A stretch of DNA of 64,000 nt from a virus. The notes beneath the pieces are model-generated. The model ran no database searches. It was not told where the DNA came from and saw only the letters and a program-made list of their open reading frames with translations. Every line of letters starts with the position of its first letter. Position 1 is the stretch's first letter. This document shows positions 7,101 to 55,914 of the stretch, in pieces. The position numbers and the translations under genes are program-made. The DNA lies in the IMG/VR virus record IMGVR_UViG_3300023548_000002, positions 1 through 64,000 of that record. One strand, given 5' to 3'.

Positions 7101-9496
7101 TCTCTATTGATAGGATTACCATGTTCCCCCTTAGATGCTTTTTGCTGTTGTTTAGCTAAATCACGCTTCTTTTTTAGTTCAGCCTCTAATTGATTTTTAA
7201 ATTCTTCTTGTTGTTTTTTCTTTTTTTCTACATACTTTTTTTCTGCTTCTTTAGTTAATGCTTTTTCTAATTTTTCTTTTAATTCTTTCTGTTTTTTCTG
7301 AAGATGTTCTACAACATCTTTTAATAATTTAGTTTTCTTTTTTACTTTATATTTTCTTCTCCTTTCAAATGTTTTCTTTTGTTTTATACGTTCTTCTTTT
7401 TCTTCCTCAAGGGACTTTAATTTATCATTATATTTCTTGTATTCTTCCTTAAGGGATATTAAGTATTTTTTAGTCTCCTCATTCCCTGTTTCTCTTAATC
7501 TCTTTTCATTATATTCTATTTCCTTAGCTAACTTATTCAATTGAAATTGTGTATCCTTTATCTGCGAATCTGCTTCTTCTATTTTCTCATTAACAATTCC
7601 TAAAGCGTTATCATAGGATTTCGTATCTACTTTTTTTGTTTCTTCGTTTAATCGAGATTCTGCAGTATTTAATACGTCCTCACTAAGATTTATTCCTGTA
7701 ACTATCCCAAGTATTTGTTCTACATTTTGCTTGTGAGAATATTTATCATAGGTAAGTTCAGCCTCTCGTATCTCGTGTTGTAAGTTAATCAAATCTTCTT
7801 TACTCCCTACCGCTGCTTTTTGCTCGTCTGTTAAACTATCATATTCATCAATATATGATTGAAGCATTGCATCAAACTTGTGCATTGTCCCTGCTTTCAT
7901 ATTACGAGCAGCTATGTCATAAATTCTTTTTTTACGTAAGGCTTTTTCCCCTGCTTTTTTTATATCTGGGTCATTAAGTTCTTCTAATGATTTGTCTATT
8001 GCTACTTCAGTGGCAATCTTCTTAGAAAAGAATTGTTTTGTTGCTGCTACTGCTAAATCTTGCTCTTTCTCTAATTCCTTAATATAGTCTTTGTATGCCT
8101 TTGTATATTGACCATTCATTACTTTGGATACTACTCGTTGAGGGTATCCCCCAAATAGACCCATAAGTCCTTCTATTTGTACCTGTGGGTCTGTAAAGAA
8201 GTCAATAAATCTATCTAATTTATCTTTGCTTTGTGATAAATATTGGTCATAGTGAGATTCCCAATAATATTTGTCTATCTTAGACATGTCAGAAATATTC
8301 TCATCTGATAAAGCAGTATTTAATATATCTATAGCCCCACGATATTCTGACTCTTTCTGCATTACTCCTTGTACTACTTCCTCCCCATATTCTTTCATTC
8401 CTTGTAAGAATGGGTTATCAGCAGTAGCATTGAATTCAAACTTCCCTTTAGCATTCTTTTTTAACCATCCGAAATACTTATAATCTCTTTCTAAGTGAGT
8501 TCGAGTTCCTAAATTGCTTAGCTTATTTATTCCTGCTATGGAAAATATATCAGAGAAAAGCATTGCTTTGTTCCAAGACACTACTCTGTCGTGAACTTCT
8601 CCTGCTCGCTTATTAACTTCATCTTGGGTAATTAATCCTGCTTGTACTAATGGCTGCATTTCTTGTCGAAAGTTATCAGCAGACTCAAATGCCATTATCT
8701 TTCCTTCCATATAATTCTGGATAAATCCCGAAGGAATAGATACTACACCATCAGCAAATTTTTTGGTATTCATAAAACTGATTAGACCATCTCCAAATTT
8801 CTGAAATCGTTTTGCTTTATCAAGCTTATTTAATGCCATTACTCCCTTTCCTACATACTTCCTAATACCTTCTTCTATCTTTAATAATTTATTAAAAGTA
8901 TCTACTCCTTTTGTAATAATTCCTCCAGGAATACCAAATCCTACAGCACTATCTACTACTCCTTTCCATAGTTCCCATACAGAAATATCATCAGGTTTCT
9001 CTTTGTAAATAGGTAATGCTTTATCTACTCCCTGTTTCGCTTCATGTGCTAACTCTGCTAACCAGTTTCTTTCATGGTCTTCAATACCCATTATATATTT
9101 GATATGATGGTCAAAATCAAGCAATGTTGCTAACCCTTCTACAGAAGTCAATGCCCCAGAGGCTACTCCTCCTACTGTTGAATTAAATGCTCTGGAAAGC
9201 GTTCCTTGTTTTTCTGCTCTTAAATCATCCGAAATCCATTGGGCAACCTGAGTATTTTCTAACCAGTCATGATTTAAGTCAATATCATAATCTAAATAAC
9301 TCTCTATATCTTGTAATCCTACATCGGAGCCAAAGAAAGATGCTCCATGAAATTTACTACGAGGTAAACTTCTTTTAGTACGAGCAGATACTAATGCTTG
9401 CCCTACAATGTCATCTTTTGTTAAAGGTAGTCCTGTTATAGGATTTACAGAGGCTTGCTCTTGCCTTTCCAATTGATATTTACTTAATTTTGGCAT
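4133..9496 (-). CDS. Large ejected (cargo) virion protein with coiled-coil and PD-(D/E)xK-like domain
   Basis: 1787 aa, adjacent to the RNAP. Gly/Ala-rich helical N-terminus, K/E coiled-coil, and GIAGALDLIAFNKNGEAHIIDFK...QQSIYA motif. Confidence 0.65.
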   Translation of the reverse strand: MPKLSKYQLERQEQASVNPITGLPLTKDDIVGQALVSARTKRSLPRSKFHGASFFGSDVGLQDIESYLDYDIDLNHDWLENTQVAQWISDDLRAEKQGTLSRAFNSTVGGVASGALTSVEGLATLLDFDHHIKYIMGIEDHERNWLAELAHEAKQGVDKALPIYKEKPDDISVWELWKGVVDSAVGFGIPGGIITKGVDTFNKLLKIEEGIRKYVGKGVMALNKLDKAKRFQKFGDGLISFMNTKKFADGVVSIPSGFIQNYMEGKIMAFESADNFRQEMQPLVQAGLITQDEVNKRAGEVHDRVVSWNKAMLFSDIFSIAGINKLSNLGTRTHLERDYKYFGWLKKNAKGKFEFNATADNPFLQGMKEYGEEVVQGVMQKESEYRGAIDILNTALSDENISDMSKIDKYYWESHYDQYLSQSKDKLDRFIDFFTDPQVQIEGLMGLFGGYPQRVVSKVMNGQYTKAYKDYIKELEKEQDLAVAATKQFFSKKIATEVAIDKSLEELNDPDIKKAGEKALRKKRIYDIAARNMKAGTMHKFDAMLQSYIDEYDSLTDEQKAAVGSKEDLINLQHEIREAELTYDKYSHKQNVEQILGIVTGINLSEDVLNTAESRLNEETKKVDTKSYDNALGIVNEKIEEADSQIKDTQFQLNKLAKEIEYNEKRLRETGNEETKKYLISLKEEYKKYNDKLKSLEEEKEERIKQKKTFERRRKYKVKKKTKLLKDVVEHLQKKQKELKEKLEKALTKEAEKKYVEKKKKQQEEFKNQLEAELKKKRDLAKQQQKASKGEHGNPINRELQMNLLKGVGMLKQTKDGKWEKTTHSGTKIYETEGEVKESLTTDDIEQALKKLQKNSKNFEIVEENGKSYYRNKKTGQKFMRQSTYVNGDETLSDEGKYGAALGNFIDIIARDVFEGKVKSFAEYKKEVREMNKSLGKKLKISKEQFEYIVKVLQEVKKELNAKGFTTVASGLILSTEMSKEWQTKTGYDGIAGALDLIAFNKNGEAHIIDFKNLLSKKQELYNKLFGTSKFANKTQAWSKQQSIYAALAEANGIHIQSINILPIIVQYKRNDGVLELTSLSTLEDNMQLGPNKALGVKNILGLHPDVALLQKFINDKNGKSGKNGKNDKSGKNDKSGKNGKNDKNDDSPVEGELTAIVDEGDKMVHRKTGASFEVIKLDTEGILVKDKDGKEVMIPYERFLEYQIVKKGTAIKPVANYKEGETIEYDNKKWIIAAIQDGKYFLKNGITQEAISVPIEEQDNFIPLSEEKEIRERTKAGGKNSPKAKDPKDPKTPAVEPEDPEHTEYVERFEQDLDETSDGGGTRREFSYNPKKEVVPFVWRAVDSEEDTKDPIQWVTTKFLMDPEVDLSNFKLIPVIKDENLQEIEVTEDNIEELILSGAIVLEFHHKSTGEKVKIELNGEQYTPQIYMPLAYKNKPNRKEILLLRRKVLEAIKEGKTVEWNNLQKGGGVVIYDRNQERSLREVIQTNGVEIFADTSPGKPLAVAGKSASGKTVKIAITRAEYNREAKSFIGVLFSKLLSGRINQVTLGELYKFLEEKAHTNPHLSFIKESIDILAQAHNKAPQDLTINYILDILVVKGKNAGINLNKKKKTLEIKTKDGVVSFKYSTPKDIISIFDSKIKSLRVNPQISRKTFNGKVKMRAQYIDNLIGHDMLLTDAQPGPFGSFFVNPSVTGMEDMTISGDKVNNTITQEEITKNDTDTVKETPASMEKNALRKQVKDIVKQYEDKLNMNSNDFIDAVMEEVEEMENLTISDLKKVIINLIDNMC

Positions 9497-42330: not shown

Positions 42331-42615
42331 TTACCATTGGTTTAGTGGACACTTGTTGGCTTTCTTAAATGATTTTATCTTTAGCTCTAATAAACATCCA
42401 CAGCCACATACTTTCTCTCCATTAACTTCCTTACACTTTTTTGGAGAACAAATGCCATTTACATTAAAATCACATCCTGAGCATTTCTCTATTCTCATAG
42501 ATATTTCCTCCATCTCCTCGGGAGACAGTAAGTCCATACTATGTTTTAGCTGGTTCATTACTGCCTCCATAAGAAGCGGAAAGGTCTGTATATATTTCTT
42601 AGCTTTCATTGGCAT
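42331..42615 (-). CDS. Small Zn-binding Cys-rich protein
   Basis: CxxC...C...CGC.L..K......CP..W pattern. Confidence 0.65.
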   Translation of the reverse strand: MPMKAKKYIQTFPLLMEAVMNQLKHSMDLLSPEEMEEISMRIEKCSGCDFNVNGICSPKKCKEVNGEKVCGCGCLLELKIKSFKKANKCPLNQW

Positions 42616-44242
42616 AATCGGGATGTAACATGTGTGCGTTATTAAATATGTTTTCCTTGTAATGAATTACTGCACTTGTGGTTGCTAACATCAGTGCTGT
42701 TGATACTGCATTCTTACAAGCACATACTATCACCTTAGCGGGGTCTATTATCCCTCTTTCTATCCCATCTACAAAGGTATCTGTTGAAAAGTCTATGGTC
42801 AGATTGAATCGCTCTTTCTCCATATTATTTTTAAACCACTTCTCTACTTTCTTTGTAGGCAAGGTAGAGTTATCTACTAAGGTTTCAAAGGGCTTTAATA
42901 AACTCTTCCCTAAAGCTACTAAGGCTTCCCGTTTATATGCTGGTAGTTCCTCTTCTTTGGCTTTTTGTATTAAGGCACTACCTAAATAAGCTAATAGTAT
43001 TCCTCCCCCTACTACATATCCCATCTCAAAGGTTGATTGCGTAGCTAAAATAGCATCTTCTACACGGTCTTTCTTCTCCGTAATCTCTACCTCAGTATAT
43101 CCTCCAACATATAAACGTGCTACTCCTTTAAAAAGCATTGCTAAACGCTCTCTATGTCTTTCATCTATTCCTTTTTCCGCCCTCTTGATAGTTTCCTCTA
43201 TGTAACTAATACGAGCTTCTATCTTTTCTTTATCTCCCTTACCGTTGATAATAGTAGTTTCCTTTGGAGAGATTATTACTTTCTCTGCTTCCCCCAATAT
43301 CTCTTTGTTTACTTTAAGCTTTTTCCCTTTGTTATTAAAGACTACTTTACACCCTAATAATACTCCTAAGTCTTCCATCATCAATATCTTCATATTCCCT
43401 ACTCCTGGGGGACGTAATACCGCTACTCTTACTCGCTGAGCTTTAGCATTCTCAAGAACAAAGTCCAGTGCTTCCCGCTCTAATTGTGAGGCAAATAGTA
43501 TTAAATCTCTCTTATTTTCTGCCGCTAAGTAAATTAAGTCGTATAAATCACTTGTTTGCTTATACTCCAAATCTGTTACTACAATCAGTGGATTGGTAAA
43601 TTCCGCAGTATCTCCATATATTGTTCTAAATAATGGATGTATGTAAGAATGCTCTACCACGGCTCCTCTTAGTAGTTCCGAGTAAGTCTTCCCTGTTTTA
43701 CTCTCTTCAATGAATATCTTACCATTTTTCCCTACTCTATATACCAACTTACCAATTATCTCCCCTAATTCTTTATCATTATTGGTAGATAGTGTTGCAA
43801 TTCGTATTAAATCTTGCTCTTCCTGTATTGTATGAGCAGTATTCTTAATCTCATCTATTACTACTTCTAATACCTCATCAATGACTTTCTTTATACTTGC
43901 CATCTTATACTTACTGTCAAGCTCTAATAGCAAGTTAAATAACTCCCTCATAATGATTGTGGAGGTGGTAGTCCCATCCCCCGCTTCTTCTACTGTCTTA
44001 GCTGCTGCTTCTTTGGCTATTTGTGCCCCTACATTAGCTAAACGGTCTTCTAAGAATATCTCATTGGCTACCGATACTCCATCTTTGGTTATTCGTGATT
44101 TATTATATACACGCTCCAATATGACATTCCTACCATTAGGACCAAGAGTCTGACTTACTGCATCTGCTAATATGTTTACTCCACATGCTAACCCTTTAGA
44201 GGCTTCATCGTTTAATTTTACTTCTCGCTCATCTGGAAACAT
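42599..44242 (-). CDS. groEL: Chaperonin GroEL
   Basis: TLGPNGRNV, ITKDGVSVA, AGDGTTT, KKDRVEDA, GYVVGGG and GIIDP.KV motifs. Confidence 0.95.
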   Translation of the reverse strand: MFPDEREVKLNDEASKGLACGVNILADAVSQTLGPNGRNVILERVYNKSRITKDGVSVANEIFLEDRLANVGAQIAKEAAAKTVEEAGDGTTTSTIIMRELFNLLLELDSKYKMASIKKVIDEVLEVVIDEIKNTAHTIQEEQDLIRIATLSTNNDKELGEIIGKLVYRVGKNGKIFIEESKTGKTYSELLRGAVVEHSYIHPLFRTIYGDTAEFTNPLIVVTDLEYKQTSDLYDLIYLAAENKRDLILFASQLEREALDFVLENAKAQRVRVAVLRPPGVGNMKILMMEDLGVLLGCKVVFNNKGKKLKVNKEILGEAEKVIISPKETTIINGKGDKEKIEARISYIEETIKRAEKGIDERHRERLAMLFKGVARLYVGGYTEVEITEKKDRVEDAILATQSTFEMGYVVGGGILLAYLGSALIQKAKEEELPAYKREALVALGKSLLKPFETLVDNSTLPTKKVEKWFKNNMEKERFNLTIDFSTDTFVDGIERGIIDPAKVIVCACKNAVSTALMLATTSAVIHYKENIFNNAHMLHPDYANES

Positions 44243-46194: not shown

Positions 46195-46270
46195 TAACCT
46201 TATAGCTACTAAGTAAATTCTTTATCATTATGTATCTGAACTATTCCCTTGGAAAACCAAAGGGGATGAG

Positions 46271-46302
46271 CAAATATACTAAATAATATTTATTATTCCA
46301 AG
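46271..46302 (-). promoter_or_regulatory. Bacteroidota sigma70-type promoter for the leftward operon
   Basis: -7 box TATATTTG at 46278-46271 and TTG about 20 nt upstream. Confidence 0.6.
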
Positions 46303-46529
46303 AAAAAATTAAATTATTTTTTAAAAATGTGCTTATAAGTAGGACAACTTGCTGTAAATGAGTAAGATAGATTGTTGAAAAAAAAATTTATTTTTTTTTT
46401 TGAAAGGCATTCTGAAAATTTTTTGTGCACCCCGACGAGAGGGGACTACCCCCCAAGACCACCCCAGGGTCGCATGCGCAGGGGAATATACCCCACATCC
46501 AACCTCGTAACCCATTAAATCTATATATT

Positions 46530-46736
46530 ATGAAAAAGTTCAAGTTAAAATTAGTCGAGGTTACGCAAAAAGAAGAGGTGGTAGTCGCCAAGTTCGTAAT
46601 GTCTAACGACCTTGGTCGATGCTTCGTCTGGGGATTTTATGTGCCAGGTGCTACGCCGCCTGAACAGCTCACAGTCTCCGCTGACGCTATCATCGTCAAC
46701 AACGGCTTCCGCCATCTCGACCCGACTAAGGCATGA
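46530..46736 (+). CDS. First rightward early gene, hypothetical 68 aa
   Basis: ATG after an AT-rich leader (MKKFKLKLVEV...), followed by a strong terminator. Confidence 0.65.
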   Translation: MKKFKLKLVEVTQKEEVVVAKFVMSNDLGRCFVWGFYVPGATPPEQLTVSADAIIVNNGFRHLDPTKA

Positions 46737-46741
46737 CGCCA

Positions 46742-46763
46742 GCCCCCTTCGGGGGCTTTTTTC
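46742..46763 (+). terminator. Intrinsic terminator
   Basis: GCCCCC-TTC-GGGGGC followed by TTTTTT. Confidence 0.85.
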
Positions 46764-47114: not shown

Positions 47115-47735
47115 ATGGGAACAACAGACTTAACAGCACTCGAAAAATTCATTGAAAAGTATTCTGATAAAGTTAATTGGAGTGAAATTTCAGAACATAA
47201 AAAACTATCGGAAGAGTTCATTGAGAAATATTCTGATAAAGTTAATTGGTATTGGATTTCACTCTATCAAAAATTATCAGAAGAATTTATTGATAAACAT
47301 TCTGATAAAGTTGATTGGTATTGGATTTCAAAATATCAAGAATTATCAGAAGAATTTATTGAAAATTACTCTAATAAAATTAATTGGAAACAGATTTCAA
47401 AATATCAAAAATTATCTGAAAAATTTATCGAGAAACATTCTGACAAAATTGATTGGAGACAAATTTCAGAATATCAAAAATTGTCTGAAAATTTTATTGA
47501 AAAGTATAAAGACAAAATTGATTGGGAACATATTTCAGCTTACCAAAAATTATCTGAAGAATTTATTGAAAAACATTCAGATAAGGTTGATTGGTATTAT
47601 ATTTCAATGCACCAAGAATTATCTGAAAAATTCATTGAGAATCATTCTGATAAAGTTAATTGGAAATGGATTTCAGCTTGCCAGAAATTATCAGAAGAAT
47701 TCATTGAAAAGCATTCTGATAAATTAACTAAATAA
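47115..47735 (+). CDS. Tryptophan-repeat protein 1 (8 x 23-aa repeats)
   Basis: Repeat LSEEFIEKHSDKVDWxxISxxQK. Confidence 0.9.
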   Translation: MGTTDLTALEKFIEKYSDKVNWSEISEHKKLSEEFIEKYSDKVNWYWISLYQKLSEEFIDKHSDKVDWYWISKYQELSEEFIENYSNKINWKQISKYQKLSEKFIEKHSDKIDWRQISEYQKLSENFIEKYKDKIDWEHISAYQKLSEEFIEKHSDKVDWYYISMHQELSEKFIENHSDKVNWKWISACQKLSEEFIEKHSDKLTK

Positions 47736-47746
47736 AAATAAAAGCT

Positions 47747-48295
47747 ATGAAAACAACAGAATTAAAAAATCTCGAAGAATTTATTGAGAAACACCCCAAT
47801 ATAGTTAATTGGAGTGAAATTTCAAAATATCAAAAATTATCTGAAAAAATTATTGAAAAACATTCTGATAAAGTTGATTGGTTTTGGATTTCGATTAAGC
47901 AAAAATTATCGGAGGAATTTATTGAAAAGTATTCTGATAAAGTTAATTGGTATTATATTTCAATTCACCAAGATTTATCTGAAAATTTCATTGAAAAGTA
48001 TTCAAATAAAGTTGATTGGAGTGAAATTTCAGCTTACCAGAAACTATCGGAGGAATTTATTGAAAAGTATTCAGATAAAGTTGATTGGTATTGGATTTCA
48101 GCTTACCAGAAATTATCGGAGGAATTCATTGAGAAGCATTCTGATAAAGTTGATTGGAAATGGATTTCAGCTTGCCAGAAATTATCGGAGGAATTTATTG
48201 AGAATCATTCTGATAAGGTTGATTGGTATTGGATTTCAGCTTACCAGAAATTATCAGAGGAATTTATCGAAAAACATTCTGATAAACTCGGTTAA
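47747..48295 (+). CDS. Tryptophan-repeat protein 2 (7 repeats)
   Basis: Same 23-aa repeat, 11-nt spacer from gene 1. Confidence 0.9.
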   Translation: MKTTELKNLEEFIEKHPNIVNWSEISKYQKLSEKIIEKHSDKVDWFWISIKQKLSEEFIEKYSDKVNWYYISIHQDLSENFIEKYSNKVDWSEISAYQKLSEEFIEKYSDKVDWYWISAYQKLSEEFIEKHSDKVDWKWISACQKLSEEFIENHSDKVDWYWISAYQKLSEEFIEKHSDKLG

Positions 48296-48837: not shown

Positions 48838-49117
48838 CTATGTTATTAACAGGGGAAAAGCACTGATACCCAAAATAAGTCCTAAGTGCATAGGCAGTAT
48901 TAATATGATAGGTGTATTAGGAATAATAGGAATTATTGCTTTAGCAGTATTACGAGCTACAGCACATCAATAGACTGAAAGCTCTCTGAAAGGACGCAGA
49001 TGTGGAAAAACAGAATCCAATCTCACTGAGTAAGAGAGCAGTAGGGGAGAAGAGAGAGAACTCGTTAAAACTCACAAATAAACTCTAATTAAAAACCAAA
49101 CAAAAATCATTAAAACT

Positions 49118-49576
49118 ATGGGAAAATTAATCATGAAAGCCCATCCTGAAACAGGAGTATTGGGCACTGAAGCAACTTTAAGCAATGGTAACAAAGGAGC
49201 ATGGGTTCGAGTTGAGCAATCCACTGTTCAAATAAATAACGGCTTTATTGAAGAGCGAAAACGAGTAGCATTTGCTTTCGTTCCCGATGCCCTTAAAGCT
49301 CAAATATTGGACGGTAAGAAAGATGGTGATGAATTTCCTTTGGAAGGAAAAATTGTCATCAAAGAAGCGTTACAACCTTTCTACGAAGGACAAGAACCCA
49401 AACGTGCAGGAGAAGATGGAGGTATCTGCGTAAAAAATGGTCGTCCTATCTACCGTCAAATAGTATTTACCTCAAACATGGCGGAAGAAGATGAATTAAT
49501 TCCCCACGATGCTATTGTGGAGAGTTTAGCATCTTTAGAAGCTACACAAGATACCAATTCTGCTGAAGAGCTGTAA
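49118..49576 (+). CDS. Hypothetical beta-rich protein with acidic tail (possible OB-fold/SSB-like)
   Basis: 152 aa, A-rich leader, acidic C-terminus. Fold is inference. Confidence 0.55.
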   Translation: MGKLIMKAHPETGVLGTEATLSNGNKGAWVRVEQSTVQINNGFIEERKRVAFAFVPDALKAQILDGKKDGDEFPLEGKIVIKEALQPFYEGQEPKRAGEDGGICVKNGRPIYRQIVFTSNMAEEDELIPHDAIVESLASLEATQDTNSAEEL

Positions 49577-49582
49577 TTGGTC

Positions 49583-49627
49583 AGGGATTATGGTAATAAA
49601 GGGAGGTTCGATTCCTCCCAATCCCTC
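49583..49627 (+). ncRNA. tRNA-like minihelix (acceptor stem + T arm only)
   Basis: AGGGATT/AATCCCT 7-bp stem enclosing GGGAGG-TTCGATT-CCTCCC. No anticodon arm. Confidence 0.5.
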
Positions 49628-49728
49628 TAAATCCAAAAGTAACCCCATATAATGTATAGTGTTGTATTTCCAGAAAATTACCACAGAGTAGATGGGGTGA
49701 AATTGGATTTATACAGGTTTAATGGGTG

Positions 49729-49767
49729 AACCCATTAGCATCCAACGGATGTTAATGGGTTTTTTTT
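49729..49767 (+). terminator. Intrinsic terminator
   Basis: ACCCATTAGCATCC-aac-GGATGTTAATGGGT followed by a T-run. Confidence 0.85.
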
Positions 49768-49915
49768 GTTTTAAATTAAAATAAGATACATTCTACCCAA
49801 CAATCTTTCACCATCCACCCAACACTCTATGAATTCCCCAACCTCTTTTCAGCAATAACCCATTTTACACACATTTACAAAATTTATTTATTTAATATAC
49901 TAAAAGCAATATACA

Positions 49916-50182
49916 ATGGAGAAACTGCACACACAACCAAAAGTAATAGCCTTTTCTTCCTCAATAGATGAAGAAAAACAATTCCTTTACACCAACTTTG
50001 AATTTATTGGAGAACCAGAAAATGGAGATGTCTTTGTAACAGAAAACCAGATAGAATTATTAGAAGAATGGTTACAACAAGTAAGAGAAGAAGATAATAA
50101 AGTTATCGAAGAACTATTAACCACACTCATACACCATATAAAGAAAGAGAACTACAATCTTATTATTATTTATACATTTTAA
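49916..50182 (+). CDS. Acidic hypothetical protein
   Basis: 88-aa ORF with A-rich leader. Confidence 0.6.
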   Translation: MEKLHTQPKVIAFSSSIDEEKQFLYTNFEFIGEPENGDVFVTENQIELLEEWLQQVREEDNKVIEELLTTLIHHIKKENYNLIIIYTF

Positions 50183-50187
50183 CAAGA

Positions 50188-50409
50188 ATGCTTATGGATA
50201 TAAAAAGAGCAATAGAAATTCTCAAACAGTATAATAAATGGAGAACTGATAAAGAAATACCATCAGTAAAAAAGATGCCACGTCCTTGTGAGATTACAGA
50301 AGCTATAAATACAGTCGTTGGAACATATACCCTCTTTGAATTCATGCGAGATAAAAATGGGGTAGCATTAACATTTGATGAACTTGGGGAAATATTGGGG
50401 AATAAATAG
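50188..50409 (+). CDS. Hypothetical phage protein
   Basis: AIEILKQYNKWR...P.EITEAI pattern. Confidence 0.6.
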   Translation: MLMDIKRAIEILKQYNKWRTDKEIPSVKKMPRPCEITEAINTVVGTYTLFEFMRDKNGVALTFDELGEILGNK

Positions 50410-50417
50410 TATATTTG
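50410..50417 (+). promoter_or_regulatory. Bacteroidota-type -7 box upstream of the cassette-like array
   Basis: TATATTTG in the intergenic gap before ORF 50488. Confidence 0.45.
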
Positions 50418-50487
50418 CATTATAAGGGTTATGGTCATTATAGTGAATAGCGTAATTATGTATTTAATAACTTAAAATTTAAATAAA

Positions 50488-50769
50488 ATGACAGAAGACG
50501 CAAAAAAAGTATGGAAAATAATGGAAGAAGATTTTGGCTGGAGTAATAAACCTAAGGATTTTCATTTAGAATATTTTGAAGATATTATAAAAGCTACCAA
50601 GAAAGCATTAACTTTAAACGTAGTTAGCCGAAGTTTACTAAGTGAATATGATATAGGTATAATTAGCGACTATGGTGTAGGGAATGTAGAATGGTGGCAA
50701 AATTATGTAAGAGAAGAAGTAGCGAGATGTAATGATTACTGGGTATCGCAATTACAAGACGGGGATTAA
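50488..50769 (+). CDS. Hypothetical cassette-like ORF
   Basis: 93 aa, internal KALTLNVVSRSL junction-type peptide. Confidence 0.65.
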   Translation: MTEDAKKVWKIMEEDFGWSNKPKDFHLEYFEDIIKATKKALTLNVVSRSLLSEYDIGIISDYGVGNVEWWQNYVREEVARCNDYWVSQLQDGD

Positions 50770-50855
50770 CTTAATGGCAAAGGCACGCTAACAAATTTGT
50801 ATAAGCGTAATTGTGTATTTAATAACTTAAAATAATAACACAAAAATTTAGAATT

Positions 50856-51044
50856 ATGGGACAAATAATTTATCAAACAATTTACACCTGCGATTTATGC
50901 GGAAAAACTCCTGAAGATGGTGAGAAATTATGGCACATGGGAAATGAAGTATGGTGTGAAGAATGTTGTAATAAATCTTATTATGAAGACGATGAAGACG
51001 ATGAAGATGACAATTGTGATGCAACCGAAAGTGATATTTATTAA
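50856..51044 (+). CDS. Small Zn-finger protein with acidic tail
   Basis: CDLC...CEEC then D/E run. Confidence 0.65.
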   Translation: MGQIIYQTIYTCDLCGKTPEDGEKLWHMGNEVWCEECCNKSYYEDDEDDEDDNCDATESDIY

Positions 51045-51107
51045 TTACGCATAACGAATTTGTATAAGCGTAATTGTGTATTTAATAACTTAAAATAAAA
51101 AAAGATT

Positions 51108-51317
51108 ATGGCTGGAATTAATTACATAAACGAACAACAAGAAGGTGTAAGAGATTTGAAATTTAACCCAAATGCTGATATTCCAACAAAACTTGGGTAT
51201 AGTTATTATCAATCGGATACAAATAATATTTGGTTTGTAAAAAGAACAAAAGACCAAAAAATTATAGCCTCATTTGTGGAAAAGAAACACTTAATTCTTT
51301 TCTTAAATGCACTATAA
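51108..51317 (+). CDS. Hypothetical cassette-like ORF
   Basis: 69 aa. Stop codon lies inside CTATAAC. Confidence 0.6.
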   Translation: MAGINYINEQQEGVRDLKFNPNADIPTKLGYSYYQSDTNNIWFVKRTKDQKIIASFVEKKHLILFLNAL

Positions 51318-51382
51318 CGGATCGCGGCTATACTTAGTGCGTAATTTTAACATTAAATATTAATTTAAAAACATAAATAAAA

Positions 51383-51685
51383 ATGGGTGAAAATAAATTT
51401 TTAAACGAAAATGGTAGAGCATTAAGTATAGCCGATGTTATGAGCAGTGCTTTAACCGAAAACGAAATTAAAATAGCACAAATTCAATCTGCCATAAAGA
51501 AACTTGGATATCAATGGCAAGAACATCAATTTAATGATGGATTTGATGAAGTCTTTATTGAAATAGCAAAAGATAAAGACCCTTCCGCAATTGATAGACA
51601 CAAGGAAGATGCTGGATGGGGTAGGTTTGGCAGATTGACAGCTTGGACAATGGCTTTAGAGTGGGCGATTCAGCATTGCTCATAA
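51383..51685 (+). CDS. Hypothetical cassette-like ORF
   Basis: 100 aa with RALSIADVMSS junction peptide. Stop lies inside CTCATAAC. Confidence 0.65.
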   Translation: MGENKFLNENGRALSIADVMSSALTENEIKIAQIQSAIKKLGYQWQEHQFNDGFDEVFIEIAKDKDPSAIDRHKEDAGWGRFGRLTAWTMALEWAIQHCS

Positions 51686-51718
51686 CTCAGAATATCCGCA
51701 ATAAAAAAATTTAATATT

Positions 51719-51955
51719 ATGAAAATAAAAGCAACAGTAGTAGAAATACTACAAGACAACTATCAAGGTGGTTCTGGACTACCAATAAAAAGGGATATTA
51801 TGGTTAATATACCAGACGATACAATAGCCATAAATATACTTGACGCAACTTATGTTAATGTCAGGGAAAAAAGATTGAATAAAATGTGGGGAGATGGTTT
51901 AAAAAATACACCATACCTGTCAATAATTTCAGTTGAGATACTTCCCACCGCTTAA
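51719..51955 (+). CDS. Hypothetical cassette-like ORF
   Basis: 78 aa, followed by TTGCGCATAAC. Confidence 0.6.
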   Translation: MKIKATVVEILQDNYQGGSGLPIKRDIMVNIPDDTIAINILDATYVNVREKRLNKMWGDGLKNTPYLSIISVEILPTA

Positions 51956-52010
51956 TTGCGCATAACTATTTATATAAAAGTAATTTATTAACCAATAAAT
52001 ATAAAAAATT

Positions 52011-52268
52011 ATGGAGAGTAAATTAAGAAGATTAATAATGCTGTATGGAGCAGCCACAATGATTAGCGATTTTGGTTATGAAACCACCTCTGAATATAAA
52101 GAATTGACTGACGAACAAAAAGCAGAAATAAAAGCCATTGCGGAACAAAAGAAATTAGAACGCCTTAAAAAACAAGGTGTAAAAGAATATTTCTACGGAG
52201 ATAAAGTTATTTATGCCTGTAATAAGAAAAATGCAGATAGAAAATCACGAAAGAAAGGTTACTTATAG
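52011..52268 (+). CDS. Hypothetical basic protein
   Basis: 85 aa, C-terminal IYA.NKKNA.RK. Confidence 0.6.
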   Translation: MESKLRRLIMLYGAATMISDFGYETTSEYKELTDEQKAEIKAIAEQKKLERLKKQGVKEYFYGDKVIYACNKKNADRKSRKKGYL

Positions 52269-52362
52269 CCCTTGTTATATTGCATTTTAATTCAACATAA
52301 TTGTGCAGTGGGTTTTTATTTTTAATTATCCAAATTAGCTTTTTAATAAAAAATAAATTATT

Positions 52363-52575
52363 ATGAAAAAAAAAATAGTAATTTTATTAGCAATACCTTT
52401 CCTAATTCTTTCCTGTAAGACAAAAGGAATTTTTAGAGAAATAGATACTGAATACAGTGGAAACACTTATGTAGTAGTTATTGATAGCTGTGAGTATTTA
52501 TATATAGAAATGCACAATGTAAGATTATTTTCACATAAGGGGAACTGCAGATTTTGTAAAATACGAAATAATTGA
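52363..52575 (+). CDS. Putative small lipoprotein
   Basis: MKKK + hydrophobic stretch + LSC lipobox. IDSCEY...HKGNC.FC. Confidence 0.6.
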   Translation: MKKKIVILLAIPFLILSCKTKGIFREIDTEYSGNTYVVVIDSCEYLYIEMHNVRLFSHKGNCRFCKIRNN

Positions 52576-52703
52576 TTAATTATAACAGGAATAAATATAA
52601 TCTACAGAACTCAGAAATAATATTTATAGTTAAAGAAATAATTAGAAGAAAACGAAAAACCAATAATGTGTTGTAGGGTTTACATTTAATGCAGAAGTAA
52701 AGC

Positions 52704-52919
52704 ATGGAACCATTTAAAGAATTTAACGACAATGATGTCTGCCCTATTTGTGGAGCAAGTGAAAATAAAGATATTGTTCTAATACAAATAGCAGGAACAC
52801 AAAAAGCTAATATATCACAAGCTAAACAAGTGCATTTAGAGTGCTTAGTAAATACTGTGATATATTATCCAAAAGAAAGAGTAATAGGTGCATATGCGCC
52901 ATATAAAAAAGGAAAATAA
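52704..52919 (+). CDS. Small Zn-binding protein
   Basis: CPIC...HLEC. Confidence 0.6.
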   Translation: MEPFKEFNDNDVCPICGASENKDIVLIQIAGTQKANISQAKQVHLECLVNTVIYYPKERVIGAYAPYKKGK

Positions 52920-52940
52920 CCACTTAAATTAATTAAAACT

Positions 52941-53342
52941 ATGAAAAAGTTATTAGTATTAGCAGTAATAAGCTTATTTATTACAAGCACAGTAAAAAGT
53001 CAAGTAAAAACTTATACATTAAGTGATGTAACTGTAATTTTTACAGATTCATTAACCTCACTGAAATCACTCAAATTTTATCCGAATCCAGTTACAGTAA
53101 AGATTGACGAAAAAGAAACTCTTGCGGTAGTAGATATAGAAAAAGCATTTTTAGCTATTTATCGCATTATAAATATTTATACATTTGAAGATAACTACGG
53201 ACGTCCTTACACTGTATATCTAATGATAGATGTGGTGAATAAGAGTTCAGCGGCAGTAAAAGTTATTGATTCTTCTTATGTTATCTATACTATTGAGGAT
53301 GTTATAATATCAGGACCTGTAAAAGAGTATTCAGTAAACTAA
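52941..53342 (+). CDS. Secreted/periplasmic hypothetical protein
   Basis: Sec signal MKKLLVLAVISLFITSTVKS-Q. Confidence 0.6.
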   Translation: MKKLLVLAVISLFITSTVKSQVKTYTLSDVTVIFTDSLTSLKSLKFYPNPVTVKIDEKETLAVVDIEKAFLAIYRIINIYTFEDNYGRPYTVYLMIDVVNKSSAAVKVIDSSYVIYTIEDVIISGPVKEYSVN

Positions 53343-53371
53343 CTCTTTTTATCTGATAAACTATAAGACAT

Positions 53372-53409
53372 ACTACATTCTGATTATGTAATCAGAATGT
53401 AGTTTTTAT
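53372..53409 (+). terminator. Perfect 15-bp inverted repeat/terminator
   Basis: ACTACATTCTGATTA-TG-TAATCAGAATGTAGT followed by T-run. Confidence 0.7.
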
Positions 53410-53457
53410 AGAGTTTTATATTTTGTAAATAATTAATCAATTACTTAAAAGTTTAAA

Positions 53458-53943
53458 ATGATGGCAACCACAGAATTAAAAAAGCTCGAAGAATTAATTG
53501 AGCAAGACCCAAATAAAGTTGATTGGGAATGGATTTCAAAATATCAAGAACTATCCGAAGAATTTATTGAAAAATATTCCAATAAAATTTATTGGAGGGA
53601 AATTTCAAAGTATCAAAAATTATCAGAAGAATTTATTGAAAAACATTCTGACAAAGTTGATTGGTATTGGATTTCAATGCACCAAAAATTATCTGAAAAG
53701 TTTATTGAAAAGCATAAAGATAAAGTTGATTGGAAACGTATATCAATGAAACAAGAACTATCAGAAGAATTTATCGAAAAATATTCTGACAAAGTTGATT
53801 GGTATTGGATTTCAATAGTACAGAAATTATCCGAGGAATTTATTGAAAGGCATTCTAATAAAGTTAATTGGGAATGGTTTGTAAAACTTCAAAAATTATC
53901 TGAAGAATTCATTGAGAAACATTCTGATAAATTAACTAAATAA
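53458..53943 (+). CDS. Tryptophan-repeat protein 3 (6 repeats)
   Basis: Same 23-aa repeat. Confidence 0.9.
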   Translation: MMATTELKKLEELIEQDPNKVDWEWISKYQELSEEFIEKYSNKIYWREISKYQKLSEEFIEKHSDKVDWYWISMHQKLSEKFIEKHKDKVDWKRISMKQELSEEFIEKYSDKVDWYWISIVQKLSEEFIERHSNKVNWEWFVKLQKLSEEFIEKHSDKLTK

Positions 53944-53954
53944 AAATAAAAGTT

Positions 53955-54782
53955 ATGAAAAAAGAAGAATTAACAAAGCTCGAAGAATTAATTGAGAAAG
54001 ACCCCAATAAAGTTAATTGGTATTGGATTTCAATTCACCAAGAATTATCCGAAGAGTTTATTGAAAAATACTCTGATAAAGTTGATTGGGAACGGATTTC
54101 AAAATATCAAAAATTATCTGAAAAATTTATTGAAAAGTATTCAGATAAAATTGATTGGTTTCTGATTTCAAAATACCAAAAATTATCTGAAAAATTTATT
54201 GAAAAGTATTCAGATAAAGTTGATTGGGAATGGATTTCAAAATATCAAAAATTATCGGAAGAATTTATTGAAAAGTATTCAGATAAAGTTGATTGGGAAT
54301 GGATTTCAAAATATCAAAAATTATCTGAAGAATTTATTGAAAAGCATAAAGATAAAGTTAGTTGGTATTATATTTCAATTCACCAAAAATTATCGGAAGA
54401 ATTTATTGAAAAACATAAAGATAGGGTTGATTGGTATTGGATTTCAGTTGAACAAAAATTATCCGAAAAATTCATTGAGAAACATTCTGATAAAGTTGAT
54501 TGGCATTGGATTTCAATATCCCAAGAATTATCTGAAAAATTTATTGAAAAGTATAAAGATAAAGTTGATTGGGAGCAGATTTCAATACACCAAAAATTAT
54601 CTGAAAAATTCATTGAAAAATACTCTGATAAAGTTGATTGGGAATGGATTTCAAAATATCAAAAATTATCGGAAGAATTTATTGAAAAGCATAAAGATAA
54701 AGTTAATTGGTACTGGATTTCAATTTGGCAAGAACTTTCTGAAGAATTTATTGAAAAGCATTCTGATAAATTAACTAAATAA
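53955..54782 (+). CDS. Tryptophan-repeat protein 4 (11 repeats)
   Basis: Same 23-aa repeat. Confidence 0.9.
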   Translation: MKKEELTKLEELIEKDPNKVNWYWISIHQELSEEFIEKYSDKVDWERISKYQKLSEKFIEKYSDKIDWFLISKYQKLSEKFIEKYSDKVDWEWISKYQKLSEEFIEKYSDKVDWEWISKYQKLSEEFIEKHKDKVSWYYISIHQKLSEEFIEKHKDRVDWYWISVEQKLSEKFIEKHSDKVDWHWISISQELSEKFIEKYKDKVDWEQISIHQKLSEKFIEKYSDKVDWEWISKYQKLSEEFIEKHKDKVNWYWISIWQELSEEFIEKHSDKLTK

Positions 54783-54793
54783 AAATAAAAGCT

Positions 54794-55279
54794 ATGAAAA
54801 CAACAGAATTAACAAAGCTCGAAGAATTTATTGAGAAATACCCCAATATAGTTAATTGGAGTGAAATTTCAAAATACCAAGAATTATCTGAAAAATTCAT
54901 TGAAAAGTATTCTGATAAAGTTGATTGGAAATGGATTTCAAAATACCAAGACTTATCTGAAAAATTTATTGAGAAACATTCTGATAAAGTCGATTGGAAA
55001 CAGATTTCAATCTACCAAGAATTATCTGAAGAATTCATTGAAAAACATTCTGATAAACTTGATTGGGGACAGATTTCAGTCTACCAGAAATTATCTGAAA
55101 AATTCATTGAAAAGTATTCCGATAAAGTTGATTGGATTTGGATTTCAATTTACCAGAAACTATCTGAAAAATTCATTGAAAAGTATTCCGATAAAGTTAA
55201 TTGGATTTGGATTTCAATTTACCAGAAACTATCTGAAAAATTCATTGAGAAACATTCTGATAAATTAACTAAATTTTAA
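54794..55279 (+). CDS. Tryptophan-repeat protein 5 (6 repeats)
   Basis: Same 23-aa repeat. Confidence 0.9.
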   Translation: MKTTELTKLEEFIEKYPNIVNWSEISKYQELSEKFIEKYSDKVDWKWISKYQDLSEKFIEKHSDKVDWKQISIYQELSEEFIEKHSDKLDWGQISVYQKLSEKFIEKYSDKVDWIWISIYQKLSEKFIEKYSDKVNWIWISIYQKLSEKFIEKHSDKLTKF

Positions 55280-55293
55280 TAAAAATAAAAGCT

Positions 55294-55914
55294 ATGAAAA
55301 AAGAAGAATTAACAAAGCTCGAAGAATTAATTGAGAAAGACCCCAATATAGTTGATTGGAGTGAAATTTCAAAATACCAAAAATTATCTGAAGAATTTAT
55401 TGAAAAGCATTCTGATAAAGTTGATTGGGAATGGATTTCAAAATTCCAAGAATTATCTGAAGAGTTCATTGAAAAGCATTCTGATAAAGTTGATTGGAGT
55501 AAAATTTCTGAATACCAAAAATTATCTGAAGAATTTATTGAAAAACATAAAGATAGGGTTGATTGGTATTGGATTTCAGTTGAACAAAAATTATCCGAAA
55601 AATTCATTGAGAAACATTCTGATAAAGTTGATTGGCATTGGATTTCAGTTGAACAAAAATTATCCGAAAAATTCATTGAGAAACATTCTGATAAAGTTGA
55701 TTGGCATTGGATTTCAATATCCCAAGAATTATCTGAAAAATTTATTGAAAAGTATTCAGATAAAGTTGATTGGGAGCAGATTTCAAAATATCAAAAATTA
55801 TCGGAAGAATTTATTGAAAAGCATAAAGATAAAGTTAATTGGTACTGGATTTCAATTTGGCAAGAACTTTCTGAAGAATTTATTGAAAAGCATTCCGATA
55901 AATTAACTAAATAA
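55294..55914 (+). CDS. Tryptophan-repeat protein 6 (8 repeats)
   Basis: Same 23-aa repeat. Confidence 0.9.
   Translation: MKKEELTKLEELIEKDPNIVDWSEISKYQKLSEEFIEKHSDKVDWEWISKFQELSEEFIEKHSDKVDWSKISEYQKLSEEFIEKHKDRVDWYWISVEQKLSEKFIEKHSDKVDWHWISVEQKLSEKFIEKHSDKVDWHWISISQELSEKFIEKYSDKVDWEQISKYQKLSEEFIEKHKDKVNWYWISIWQELSEEFIEKHSDKLTK

Follow-up and report, generated by a model that had tools for sequence, protein, structure and literature searches.

A probable row of partly decayed, integron-like gene cassettes in a crAss-like phage

Integrons are the textbook route by which bacteria collect single genes, and crAss-like phages, to our knowledge, are usually described as strictly virulent and devoid of integrases. 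Can a phage of this kind carry integron-like cassettes, and does it then possess its own capture system? Reports of attC clusters in phages are limited to a handful (Qi et al. 2023, PMC9892861). The locus that raises the question lies in the window analyzed here, bases 1 to 64,000 of the 73,459-bp virus record IMGVR_UViG_3300023548_000002 (32.5% G+C; 76% complete by CheckV); figures given below for the genome refer to the whole 73-kb record. A search with its major capsid protein matched 121 records, with approximately 40% identity to the capsid proteins of crAss-like phages such as IAS virus, cr106_1, and DAC15, and PHROGs assignments include terminase, GroEL-like chaperonin, DNA polymerase, and helicase. 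Genes up to 45.8 kb lie on the minus strand, followed from about 46 kb onward by small plus-strand genes. Five small open reading frames (ORF1 to ORF5) in the latter part had been taken, in a sequence-only reading of the window, for an integron-like array belonging to a phage cassette-capture system. We find that 50.8 to 52.6 kb is probably a short, partly decayed row of single-gene cassettes of a phage-borne, integron-like family, and that the row, judged by its sequence, does not appear to be a classical IntI integron. For the units, the integron-like reading largely holds; for a complete system in this phage, it does not.

The evidence centers on ORF4 and the folded site that precedes it (Table 1). 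This site, which was not among the motifs listed in the sequence-only reading, is an imperfect hairpin whose stem pairs 51325 to 51340 with 51419 to 51434, including one G.T pair, and whose loop contains an A-rich leader and the ATG at 51383. The sequence that follows the TAAC at 51315 pairs with codons 9 to 17 of ORF4, ending in TGTTA(TG). The duplex of 51309 to 51341 with 51418 to 51451 ranks first among approximately 18,000 long-range plus-strand duplexes of the whole genome, at -35.3 kcal/mol versus a scan mean of -13.1 (standard deviation, 4.0; z = -5.5). The site has the attC-type form, starting with TAAC and ending with GTTA, with ends that pair in nine of nine aligned copies, and by eye it is a partial match to the full consensus RYYYAAC/GTTRRRY. 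Across the unit, GTTATGAGCAGTGC (51437 to 51450) and GCATTGCTCATAAC (51673 to 51686) are complementary at 13 of 14 positions, as had been claimed (P of approximately 0.01 against random segments). With these inverted-complementary GTTA...TAAC ends and a folded imperfect-palindrome site, ORF4 would qualify as a cassette in the integron sense, a designation that its sequence supports, and the unit at 51315 to 51686 is the sole complete one in this phage.

The ORF4 unit recurs in unrelated surroundings. Eight metagenome loci encoding an ORF4 homologue were compared (L001 to L008), and ORF4 is the only one among 31 window proteins with a match in them. At least six other loci contain it, and their flanks bear no relation to one another apart from 21 nucleotides (nt) that match downstream of it in L001 and L006. 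Homology ends directly after TCATAAC in five of the six close loci (L005 has TAAT, and the distant L008 has TAG), so that the breakpoint check proposed in the sequence-only reading favors cassettes. A hairpin of the same family stands ahead of the ORF4 homologue in six of nine loci, the window included: a covariance model of the site, R1, scores 84 to 113 bits there in the window, L001, L002, L003, L005, and L007, with L004, L006, and L008 lacking the element at this place. Duplex energies compared with shuffles give z values of -4.3 to -7.1 for the window, L001, L002, L003, and L007, then -1.8 for L005 and nothing for L006. For ORF4, the hairpin clearly moves together with the ORF that follows it. 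Among its 28 homologues the N-termini are variable, and the conserved body begins at V17-M18 (GTT ATG), as seen in an alignment (A1) of 21 of the 29 proteins that left out P0008, P0018, P0021, P0022, P0024, P0025, P0028, and P0029, which are short, partial, or long-extended. Searched as a single protein in viral contigs, ORF4 has no relatives.

Model R1 was built from nine aligned copies of the site, of which the window copy is one, and some copies, in L003 and L007, are not linked to ORF4. In these nine copies, 96.5% of cells pair, compared with 78.7% in shuffles (0 of 500 reach the observed value), and 7 of 10 stem pairs carry changes on both sides, with slid controls at 24 to 52%; the arms vary between loci yet still pair. 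The window site scores 87.2 bits on the plus strand and 7.9 bits on the minus strand, and members of viral arrays score 37 to 84 bits. Searching with R1 also revealed further copies in L003 and L004, and L003 holds five elements in 1.8 kb, each between small ORFs.

The family is large. A four-box pattern of the site matches at least 119 stretches of viral contigs, and a finder that checks the stem identifies at least 356 elements in the matched viral loci, in same-strand arrays of up to 12. R1, run on 50 of the 119 listed viral loci, gives 127 matches at an E value of ≤0.001 across those 50. Element lengths cluster at 87 to 90 nt (94 of 132 among the matches listed), with a second class near 124 nt when a wider finder is used. 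The flanks follow one consensus, ATT[G/A]C-NN-[A/C]-TAAC ... GTTA-NNN-GCAGT, with a fixed T.G opposition (294 elements), in which the near-invariance of TAAC and GTTA is partly by construction because both the finder and the collection pattern impose them. The window holds three such end boxes and one start box within 51044 to 51966. Successive hairpins are, moreover, complementary at their facing ends: in 67 of 158 pairs (42%), the 10 nt that follow GTTA in one hairpin agree at 8 or more of 10 positions with the reverse complement of the 10 nt preceding TAAC in the next, whereas the controls reach this level in 2 of 158 (own flank of the hairpin), 3 of 158 (paired the wrong way), and 25 of 2,000 (random pairs). 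The pairs are nonredundant, duplicate flank pairs and spacings of <60 or >1,500 nt having been dropped. In L003, the complementarity counted by eye between neighboring hairpins is 14/15, approximately 13/16, and 13/14. This end complementarity between successive hairpins is the defining geometry of integron cassettes.

A pattern search of a genome collection returned 105 stretches, of which 29 fail the stem check and 33 hold at least two elements; the multi-element matches lie mostly on short metagenome-bin contigs with many different labels and give no firm host. Arrays of 5 to 11 family hairpins occur in L305, L324, L298 (one archaeal metagenome bin), and L297 (a single-cell assembly), and these are probably phage DNA binned with hosts or bystanders. 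No match to a hairpin of L003 was obtained by blastn against GenBank phages, and no full-text literature description of an Xer-linked hairpin-cassette system in phages was found, although the 17 phages with integrase-less attC clusters of PMC9892861 may include the family. A different pattern, GCATAAC-gap-GCGTAATT, hit 120 stretches in viral contigs, none like the window element, and was treated as chance; in 8 of the 120, all from unrelated DNA of higher GC content, an extra feature was partially present.

Could composition and coding selection have produced the marks of the row? By this account, the TAAC stops would be accidental and the 13-of-14 pair would follow from AT-rich composition and the codons V-M-S-S-A and H-C-S-stop. 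TAAC is frequent, with 582 bare occurrences (301 + 281) in the window, not above chance, and both arms of the pair encode conserved residues. Several motifs of the sequence-only reading also lie at chance level. Its TAnnTTTG box is present but occurs 95 times in the genome and was dropped as a head promoter; the GTTAGC/GCTAAC pair exists but is no better than chance (P = 0.45); and the small intergenic hairpins are located as described, but four junctions fold like shuffles (z, +0.10 to -1.62). Small stems at the five listed TAAC sites measure 4, 8, 6, 5, and 1 bp, values that are not all independent because two share a repeat arm and that amount to a modest excess over 339 null TAAC sites (85 with ≥4 bp, 30 with ≥5, 11 with ≥6, and 2 with ≥8). 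TAACG was likewise considered as a restricted signal and rejected, having 29 + 20 genome occurrences, mostly within genes. What such chance does not deliver is the covariation across nine copies, the hundreds of family members with one flank consensus, or the clustering of end boxes, which goes far beyond expectation: ATT[GA]CNN[AC]TAAC occurs five times on both strands of the 73-kb genome (mean of mononucleotide shuffles, 1.36), and three of the five, at 51044, 51675, and 51955, are the ends of ORF2, ORF4, and ORF5, with stops at offsets of 0 or -10 from TAAC, positions typical of the family. In our view, covariation, end complementarity, and end-box clustering already refute an origin by chance, which we hold to be extremely improbable.

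In other phages, the hairpin arrays are accompanied by an enzyme gene. One PF00589 recombinase is found in 15 of 28 array-bearing viral records, and in 13 of these 15 loci the hairpins lie directly upstream of the recombinase gene and in the same orientation. The 28 records, most of them incomplete, represent 30 of the 119 listed viral loci; 15 of 28 is not a rate for all carriers, since the loci were mostly picked for having several elements (two of them had two). The recombinases are 265 to 301 amino acids long and 38 to 76% identical to each other. Their best NCBIfam match is an XerA-type model (168 to 206 bits, below its cutoff of 220), and the integron-integrase model TIGR02249 gives 151 to 156 bits against a cutoff of 265, matched in two stretches; from the low score, the split match, and the XerA-type best model, we take the array recombinase not to be an IntI. 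The search for IntI-like tyrosine recombinases that had been suggested on the basis of the window thus turned up Xer-like rather than IntI-like enzymes, beside arrays in other phages and not in this one: the phage record encodes no IntI with the IntI-specific extra domain, and the window has no divergent intI with attI and Pc at the head of the array.

From these features, we propose how the system would work. A complete unit would comprise a folded site, a small ORF, and an end box ATT[G/A]CNN[A/C]TAAC at or just after the stop codon, with the end box reverse complementary to the start box of the same unit, GTTA-NNN-GCAGT. The folded site would consist of TAACG, a bulge of 3 to 6 nt, a stem of 15 to 22 bp with G.T wobbles on the coding strand, a loop of 35 to 80 nt, and TGTTA; in long-type sites, the leader and start codon would fall within the loop and the 3' arm would be translated. 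Rows in other phages appear to end at the gene for the small Xer-like tyrosine recombinase, the putative enzyme, and exchange would be site specific, with the folded sites crossing over at their TAAC/GTTA cores and a single gene transferred per event. In the phage studied here, ORF2, ORF5, and ORF7 appear to have kept the end marks and lost the hairpins. Since the 73-kb record contains no recombinase gene, its units were most likely acquired in trans, by co-infection, or by an ancestor, and they would now be mostly fixed.

Several observations weigh against such a row of cassettes. The sequence-only reading had noted that the window holds no integrase, and we find no tyrosine or serine recombinase in the whole 73-kb record either, although absence from the whole phage is not established because the record is 76% complete; tblastn of the record detects no recombinase remnant (best E value, 0.57). 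Five crAss-like relatives (171 kb) have neither a recombinase nor any element, the same finder that gives one element in this genome giving none there, and a crAss-type capsid gene was found in none of five array-bearing records tested. Within the row, only one of the five listed junctions matches the site model. A filters-off scan of 44 to 64 kb with the model yields no second site (next best, 14.3 bits; E value, 0.77), and the 73-kb genome has one intact site instead of a same-strand array of several. The ends of ORF1 and ORF3 are noncanonical, and the start-box partners are weak (P = 0.14 for ORF2, 0.04 for ORF3, 0.09 for ORF5, and 0.45 for ORF1). The imposition of TAAC/GTTA cores by the finder and pattern lessens the weight of their conservation, two R1 matches in L003 having TATC or TAAT instead. 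When hairpins and ORFs are compared across the family with same-locus pairs dropped, 13 of 28 pairs are uninformative, and the remaining 15 favor the upstream hairpin in 7, the downstream hairpin in 3, and both similarly in 5, a trend for the hairpin to go with the ORF behind it. The circular or excision junctions that had been proposed as a check were sought by aligning metagenome contigs to the locus and none was seen, contigs being a form of data that drops rare forms, and an independent metagenome, X2, has the same arrangement with few base changes. The ORF4 unit, together with end complementarity and recombinase linkage in the family, nevertheless upholds the proposal of integron-like cassettes, although only one junction of the five is a member of the site family. 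With no recombinase in the record and no excision joints seen, the phage is more plausibly a carrier of cassettes that were captured and have partly decayed than the owner of a capture system.

A further challenge comes from the strand on which the sites fold. Stem wobbles in 295 elements comprise 624 G.T pairs, with G on the 5' arm, versus 83 T.G pairs, and the pair adjoining the core is G.T in 289 of the 295. As G.T outnumbers T.G, the coding strand should fold better, in line with the strand difference in R1 score at the window site. Of 102 long-type elements, 57 have an ATG in the loop whose frame continues through the 3' arm, compared with 7 of 169 short ones, which suggests that the sites also shape translation. 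Both the wobble bias and the translation signals in the loops would also suit a role in RNA, and they would be expected if the 126-nt hairpin and its relatives were solely RNA structures for processing, stability, or translation control of early transcripts, with no part in DNA recombination; a stem of approximately 20 to 25 bp also suits double-strand RNases. An RNA structure alone would, however, predict neither flank complementarity between successive hairpins, seen at 42% versus 1 to 2% in controls, nor linkage to a tyrosine recombinase, seen in 13 of 15 loci, nor gene-sized units in unrelated contexts, and Rfam has no matching family. We keep this explanation as a minor rival, since unit-end complementarity and recombinase linkage stay unexplained by it, and consider it improbable; an added RNA role may coexist with the DNA role.

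Only slightly better placed, and still unlikely, is an explanation by regulatory cassettes. Here, the junctions would be repeated promoter/leader units shuffled by ordinary homologous recombination, with TAAC as leader or stop context, in the manner of the T4-type PeSLs, which combine a strong sigma-70-like promoter with a terminator stem-loop, recombine homologously, and have mini-circle vectors proposed for their shuffling (PMC2839356, Arbiol et al. 2010). The 42-bp block that had been reported as identical at 50794 and 51057 is so, and a diverged third copy lies at 50434, each copy 20 to 45 nt before a start codon; its 22-nt core has three matches in the window and none in 100 shuffles. The motif TAAC(AA)CTTAAAA is enriched before start codons in this phage and a relative, as are the k-mers ACAACT, TAACAA, and ACTTAA (5- to 7-fold), 22 of 93 genes have a TAAC no more than 12 nt from their stop, and contigs from RNA libraries span 51331 to 51616 and 51756 to 52013 (these runs exist as contigs only, and stretches without RNA cover carry no weight). 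Yet sigma-70-like promoter matches are not in excess (20 versus 27.1 expected), a Bacteroidota -7 box is no more frequent than chance, the small hairpins do not form stable terminators, and in one study the early promoters of a crAss-like phage shared no motif (10.1101/2020.03.07.982082). No strong sigma-70-like promoter with a terminator is found between the small ORFs, and the blocks show no promoter beyond consensus noise. Left unexplained are the inverted-complementary ends of ORF4 (13/14), the family-wide complementarity rule, the 12-nt end box at three stops, and the recombinase beside arrays. An initial interpretation as promoter/terminator cassettes was dropped in view of the hairpin duplex, the covariation, and the ORF4 units in unrelated flanks.

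A leader motif near TAAC(AA)CTTAAAA stands 5 to 25 nt before many start codons in the early region of the window and in the relative L031 (G002:43000-62999). Where genes abut, the stop TAA forms the beginning of this motif, which accounts for some TAA-C stops outside the cassette row.

Table 1. Features of the cassette row, by position in the window
Feature	Position	Strand	Details
ORF1 with TAAC at 50789	50488-50792	+	ORF 50488-50769; end box noncanonical, no end-box match
42-bp head block, copy 1, ahead of ORF2	50794-50835	+	Begins just after TAAC 50789-50792
ORF2, candidate cassette cargo	50856-51044	+	62 amino acids; Cys-rich, acidic tail
Cassette end box ATTACGCATAAC	51044-51055	+	Canonical; stop codon begins 10 nt before TAAC
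42-bp head block, copy 2, ahead of ORF3	51057-51098	+	Identical to copy 1
ORF3	51108-51317	+	69 amino acids; stop TAA is the TAA of the site's TAAC; end box one base off consensus
Intact folded site	51315-51440	+	TAACG, 6-nt bulge, 16-bp stem, 78-nt loop, TGTTA; 126 nt, imperfect hairpin
ORF4, predicted cassette cargo	51383-51685	+	100 amino acids; codons 9 to 17 form the 3' arm of the site
Cassette start box GTTA-TGA-GCAGT-GC	51437-51450	+	Canonical; one of two genome matches to the start pattern
Cassette end box ATTGCTCATAAC	51675-51686	+	Canonical; stop is the TAA of TAAC; cross-locus homology ends here
ORF5, candidate cassette cargo	51719-51955	+	78 amino acids; 33-nt junction before ORF5 without hairpin
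Cassette end box ATTGCGCATAAC	51955-51966	+	Canonical; stop codon begins 10 nt before TAAC
Relic of site 3' end CCCTTGTTA	52269-52277	+	Directly after ORF6 (52011-52268)
ORF7 with near-canonical end box	52363-52586	+	ORF 52363-52575, 70 amino acids, lipoprotein-like; box 52575-52586

Around the complete unit, the row is uneven. As the sequence-only reading had it, five ORFs on the same strand end at or near TAAC motifs (motif ends, 50792, 51055, 51318, 51686, and 51966), and two of them, ORF3 and ORF4, have the TAA of TAAC as their stop codon. Membership of ORF1 is doubtful because its end box is noncanonical. By eye, the 42-bp head blocks resemble a long-type site that has its 5' arm and the beginning of its loop and lacks the 3' arm; copy 1 has no match to R1, and the exact 22-nt core has no matches in viral contigs. 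The three successive TAAC cores at 50789, 51052, and 51315 are exactly 263 nt apart, and ORF2 and ORF3 are unrelated. Farther downstream, a relative's contig (run X4; depth, 4.8) matches 52076 to 52277 and diverges exactly after the GTTA of the relic, which, coming from one contig, is weak evidence. ORF7 is 43% identical to L163:7381-7572, which sits between R1 matches at L163:7260-7393 and 7585-7720.

None of the five listed ORFs belongs to a Pfam or PHROG family. ORF1 and ORF3, searched as single proteins in viral contigs, have no relatives there, and ORF5 has five homologues, all on short metagenome contigs. ORF2 has CxxC...CxxCC cysteines and a C-terminal acidic run and could be a small zinc-ribbon protein. 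A structural model of ORF4 (predicted local distance difference test [pLDDT], 80.8) has an alpha-beta-beta-alpha fold, and its best likeness to a solved structure is to the T7 gp1.2 inhibitor of host dGTPase (E value, 0.058; template modeling score, 0.36 to 0.50), which is too weak to assign a function.

How does the family compare with known systems? It shares with integrons similarly oriented units of one ORF each, imperfect-palindrome sites that vary in length (55 to 139 nt here) with ...AAC and GTT... cores and extra unpaired bases on the AAC-side arm, unit starts complementary to the core region at the unit's own end, stop codons often inside the AAC core, and arrays that in some genomes lack a recombinase. 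It differs in its enzyme, which is the small Xer-like recombinase and not IntI, and in the place of that gene behind the array in the same orientation, instead of divergent with attI and Pc. Unlike in integrons, leader and start codon come from the loop in long-type sites, whose 3' arm is itself translated; the family hairpin also tends to accompany the ORF behind it, a tendency that is weak family-wide. The bottom strand recombines more readily in classical integrons (PMC9892861), whereas wobbles in the family favor coding-strand folding. The same study reports 17 attC clusters without integrase (CALINs) among 10,705 phage genomes, carried by virulent phages, with five of six phage attC sites tested being recombined by IntI1; such integrase-less clusters are a precedent for a cassette row without a recombinase.

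The family is also like the dif modules of Acinetobacter plasmids, small gene modules bounded by Xer-type sites and shuffled between replicons by an enzyme that can act in trans. Those modules use the host XerCD enzyme, are carried by plasmids, and are bounded by inversely oriented pdif sites, which are 28-bp double-stranded XerC/XerD sites; in contrast, the sites of the family are hairpins of 90 to 125 nt carried by phages. With PeSLs it has in common small ORFans in hyperplastic regions of virulent phages, split by repeated intergenic units (PMC2839356), and the 42-bp repeats seen here could support the same homologous exchange. Unlike PeSLs, the family combines sites with conserved cores and covarying stems, unit ends that are complementary, and linkage to a tyrosine recombinase.

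A broader reading can be entertained tentatively, at a little less than an even chance: that a hairpin-based, IntI-independent exchange using the small Xer-like recombinase links unrelated lineages, namely, large T4-like or jumbo phages and Crassvirales, with folding of the coding strand and uptake in trans by the crAss-like phage during co-infection. If so, insertion of a long-form unit, whose site includes the leader, start codon, and first codons, would bring its own expression signals and a swappable N-terminus. Cassette logic like that of integrons, beside a different, simpler recombinase, is apparent in hundreds of uncultured phage contigs, and the window extends it to a crAss-like phage. 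If active, the system would explain how small early genes, likely serving in host takeover or counter-defense, move one at a time between unrelated phages, and it would provide both a defined site and an enzyme for testing. As an example, the window is modest, with one intact unit and decayed ones, and its value lies in the new carrier lineage and the site-borne start codon.

Several other features of the record deserve mention. A GroEL-like chaperonin gene lies at 42599 to 44242 on the minus strand (PHROG 5725; E value, 1.5e-117), with homologues of 32 to 40% identity in three of five relatives. In the strand-switch region, 46195 to 46529 and 46425 to 46757 are long, GC-enriched, noncoding stretches whose duplexes rank among the strongest long-range ones of the genome (-33.4 and -29.6 kcal/mol), recalling the abundant noncoding early RNAs of phage phi14:2 (10.1101/2020.03.07.982082). 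A 339-nt gap at 49577 to 49915 contains a T-arm-like GGTTCGATTCC hairpin (49601 to 49619) and a strong terminator-like hairpin (49728 to 49762); ARAGORN finds no tRNA in it, and Rfam gives only a 12.8-bit match to a tmRNA fragment. Six paralogous genes at 47115 to 48295 and 53458 to 55914 consist of 69-nt (23-amino-acid) tandem repeats, and Bacillus and Listeria jumbo phages have similar DNA that carries the annotation of a tryptophan repeat gene family; blastn of 49000 to 54000 of the window against GenBank phages matches only these Trp-repeat genes. Their junctions have a common, fixed 11-nt spacer, AAATAAAAGCT, ahead of the ATG, and just ahead of the second cluster, at 53372 to 53403, lies a perfect 14- to 15-bp palindrome with a T-run on both strands, resembling a bidirectional terminator.

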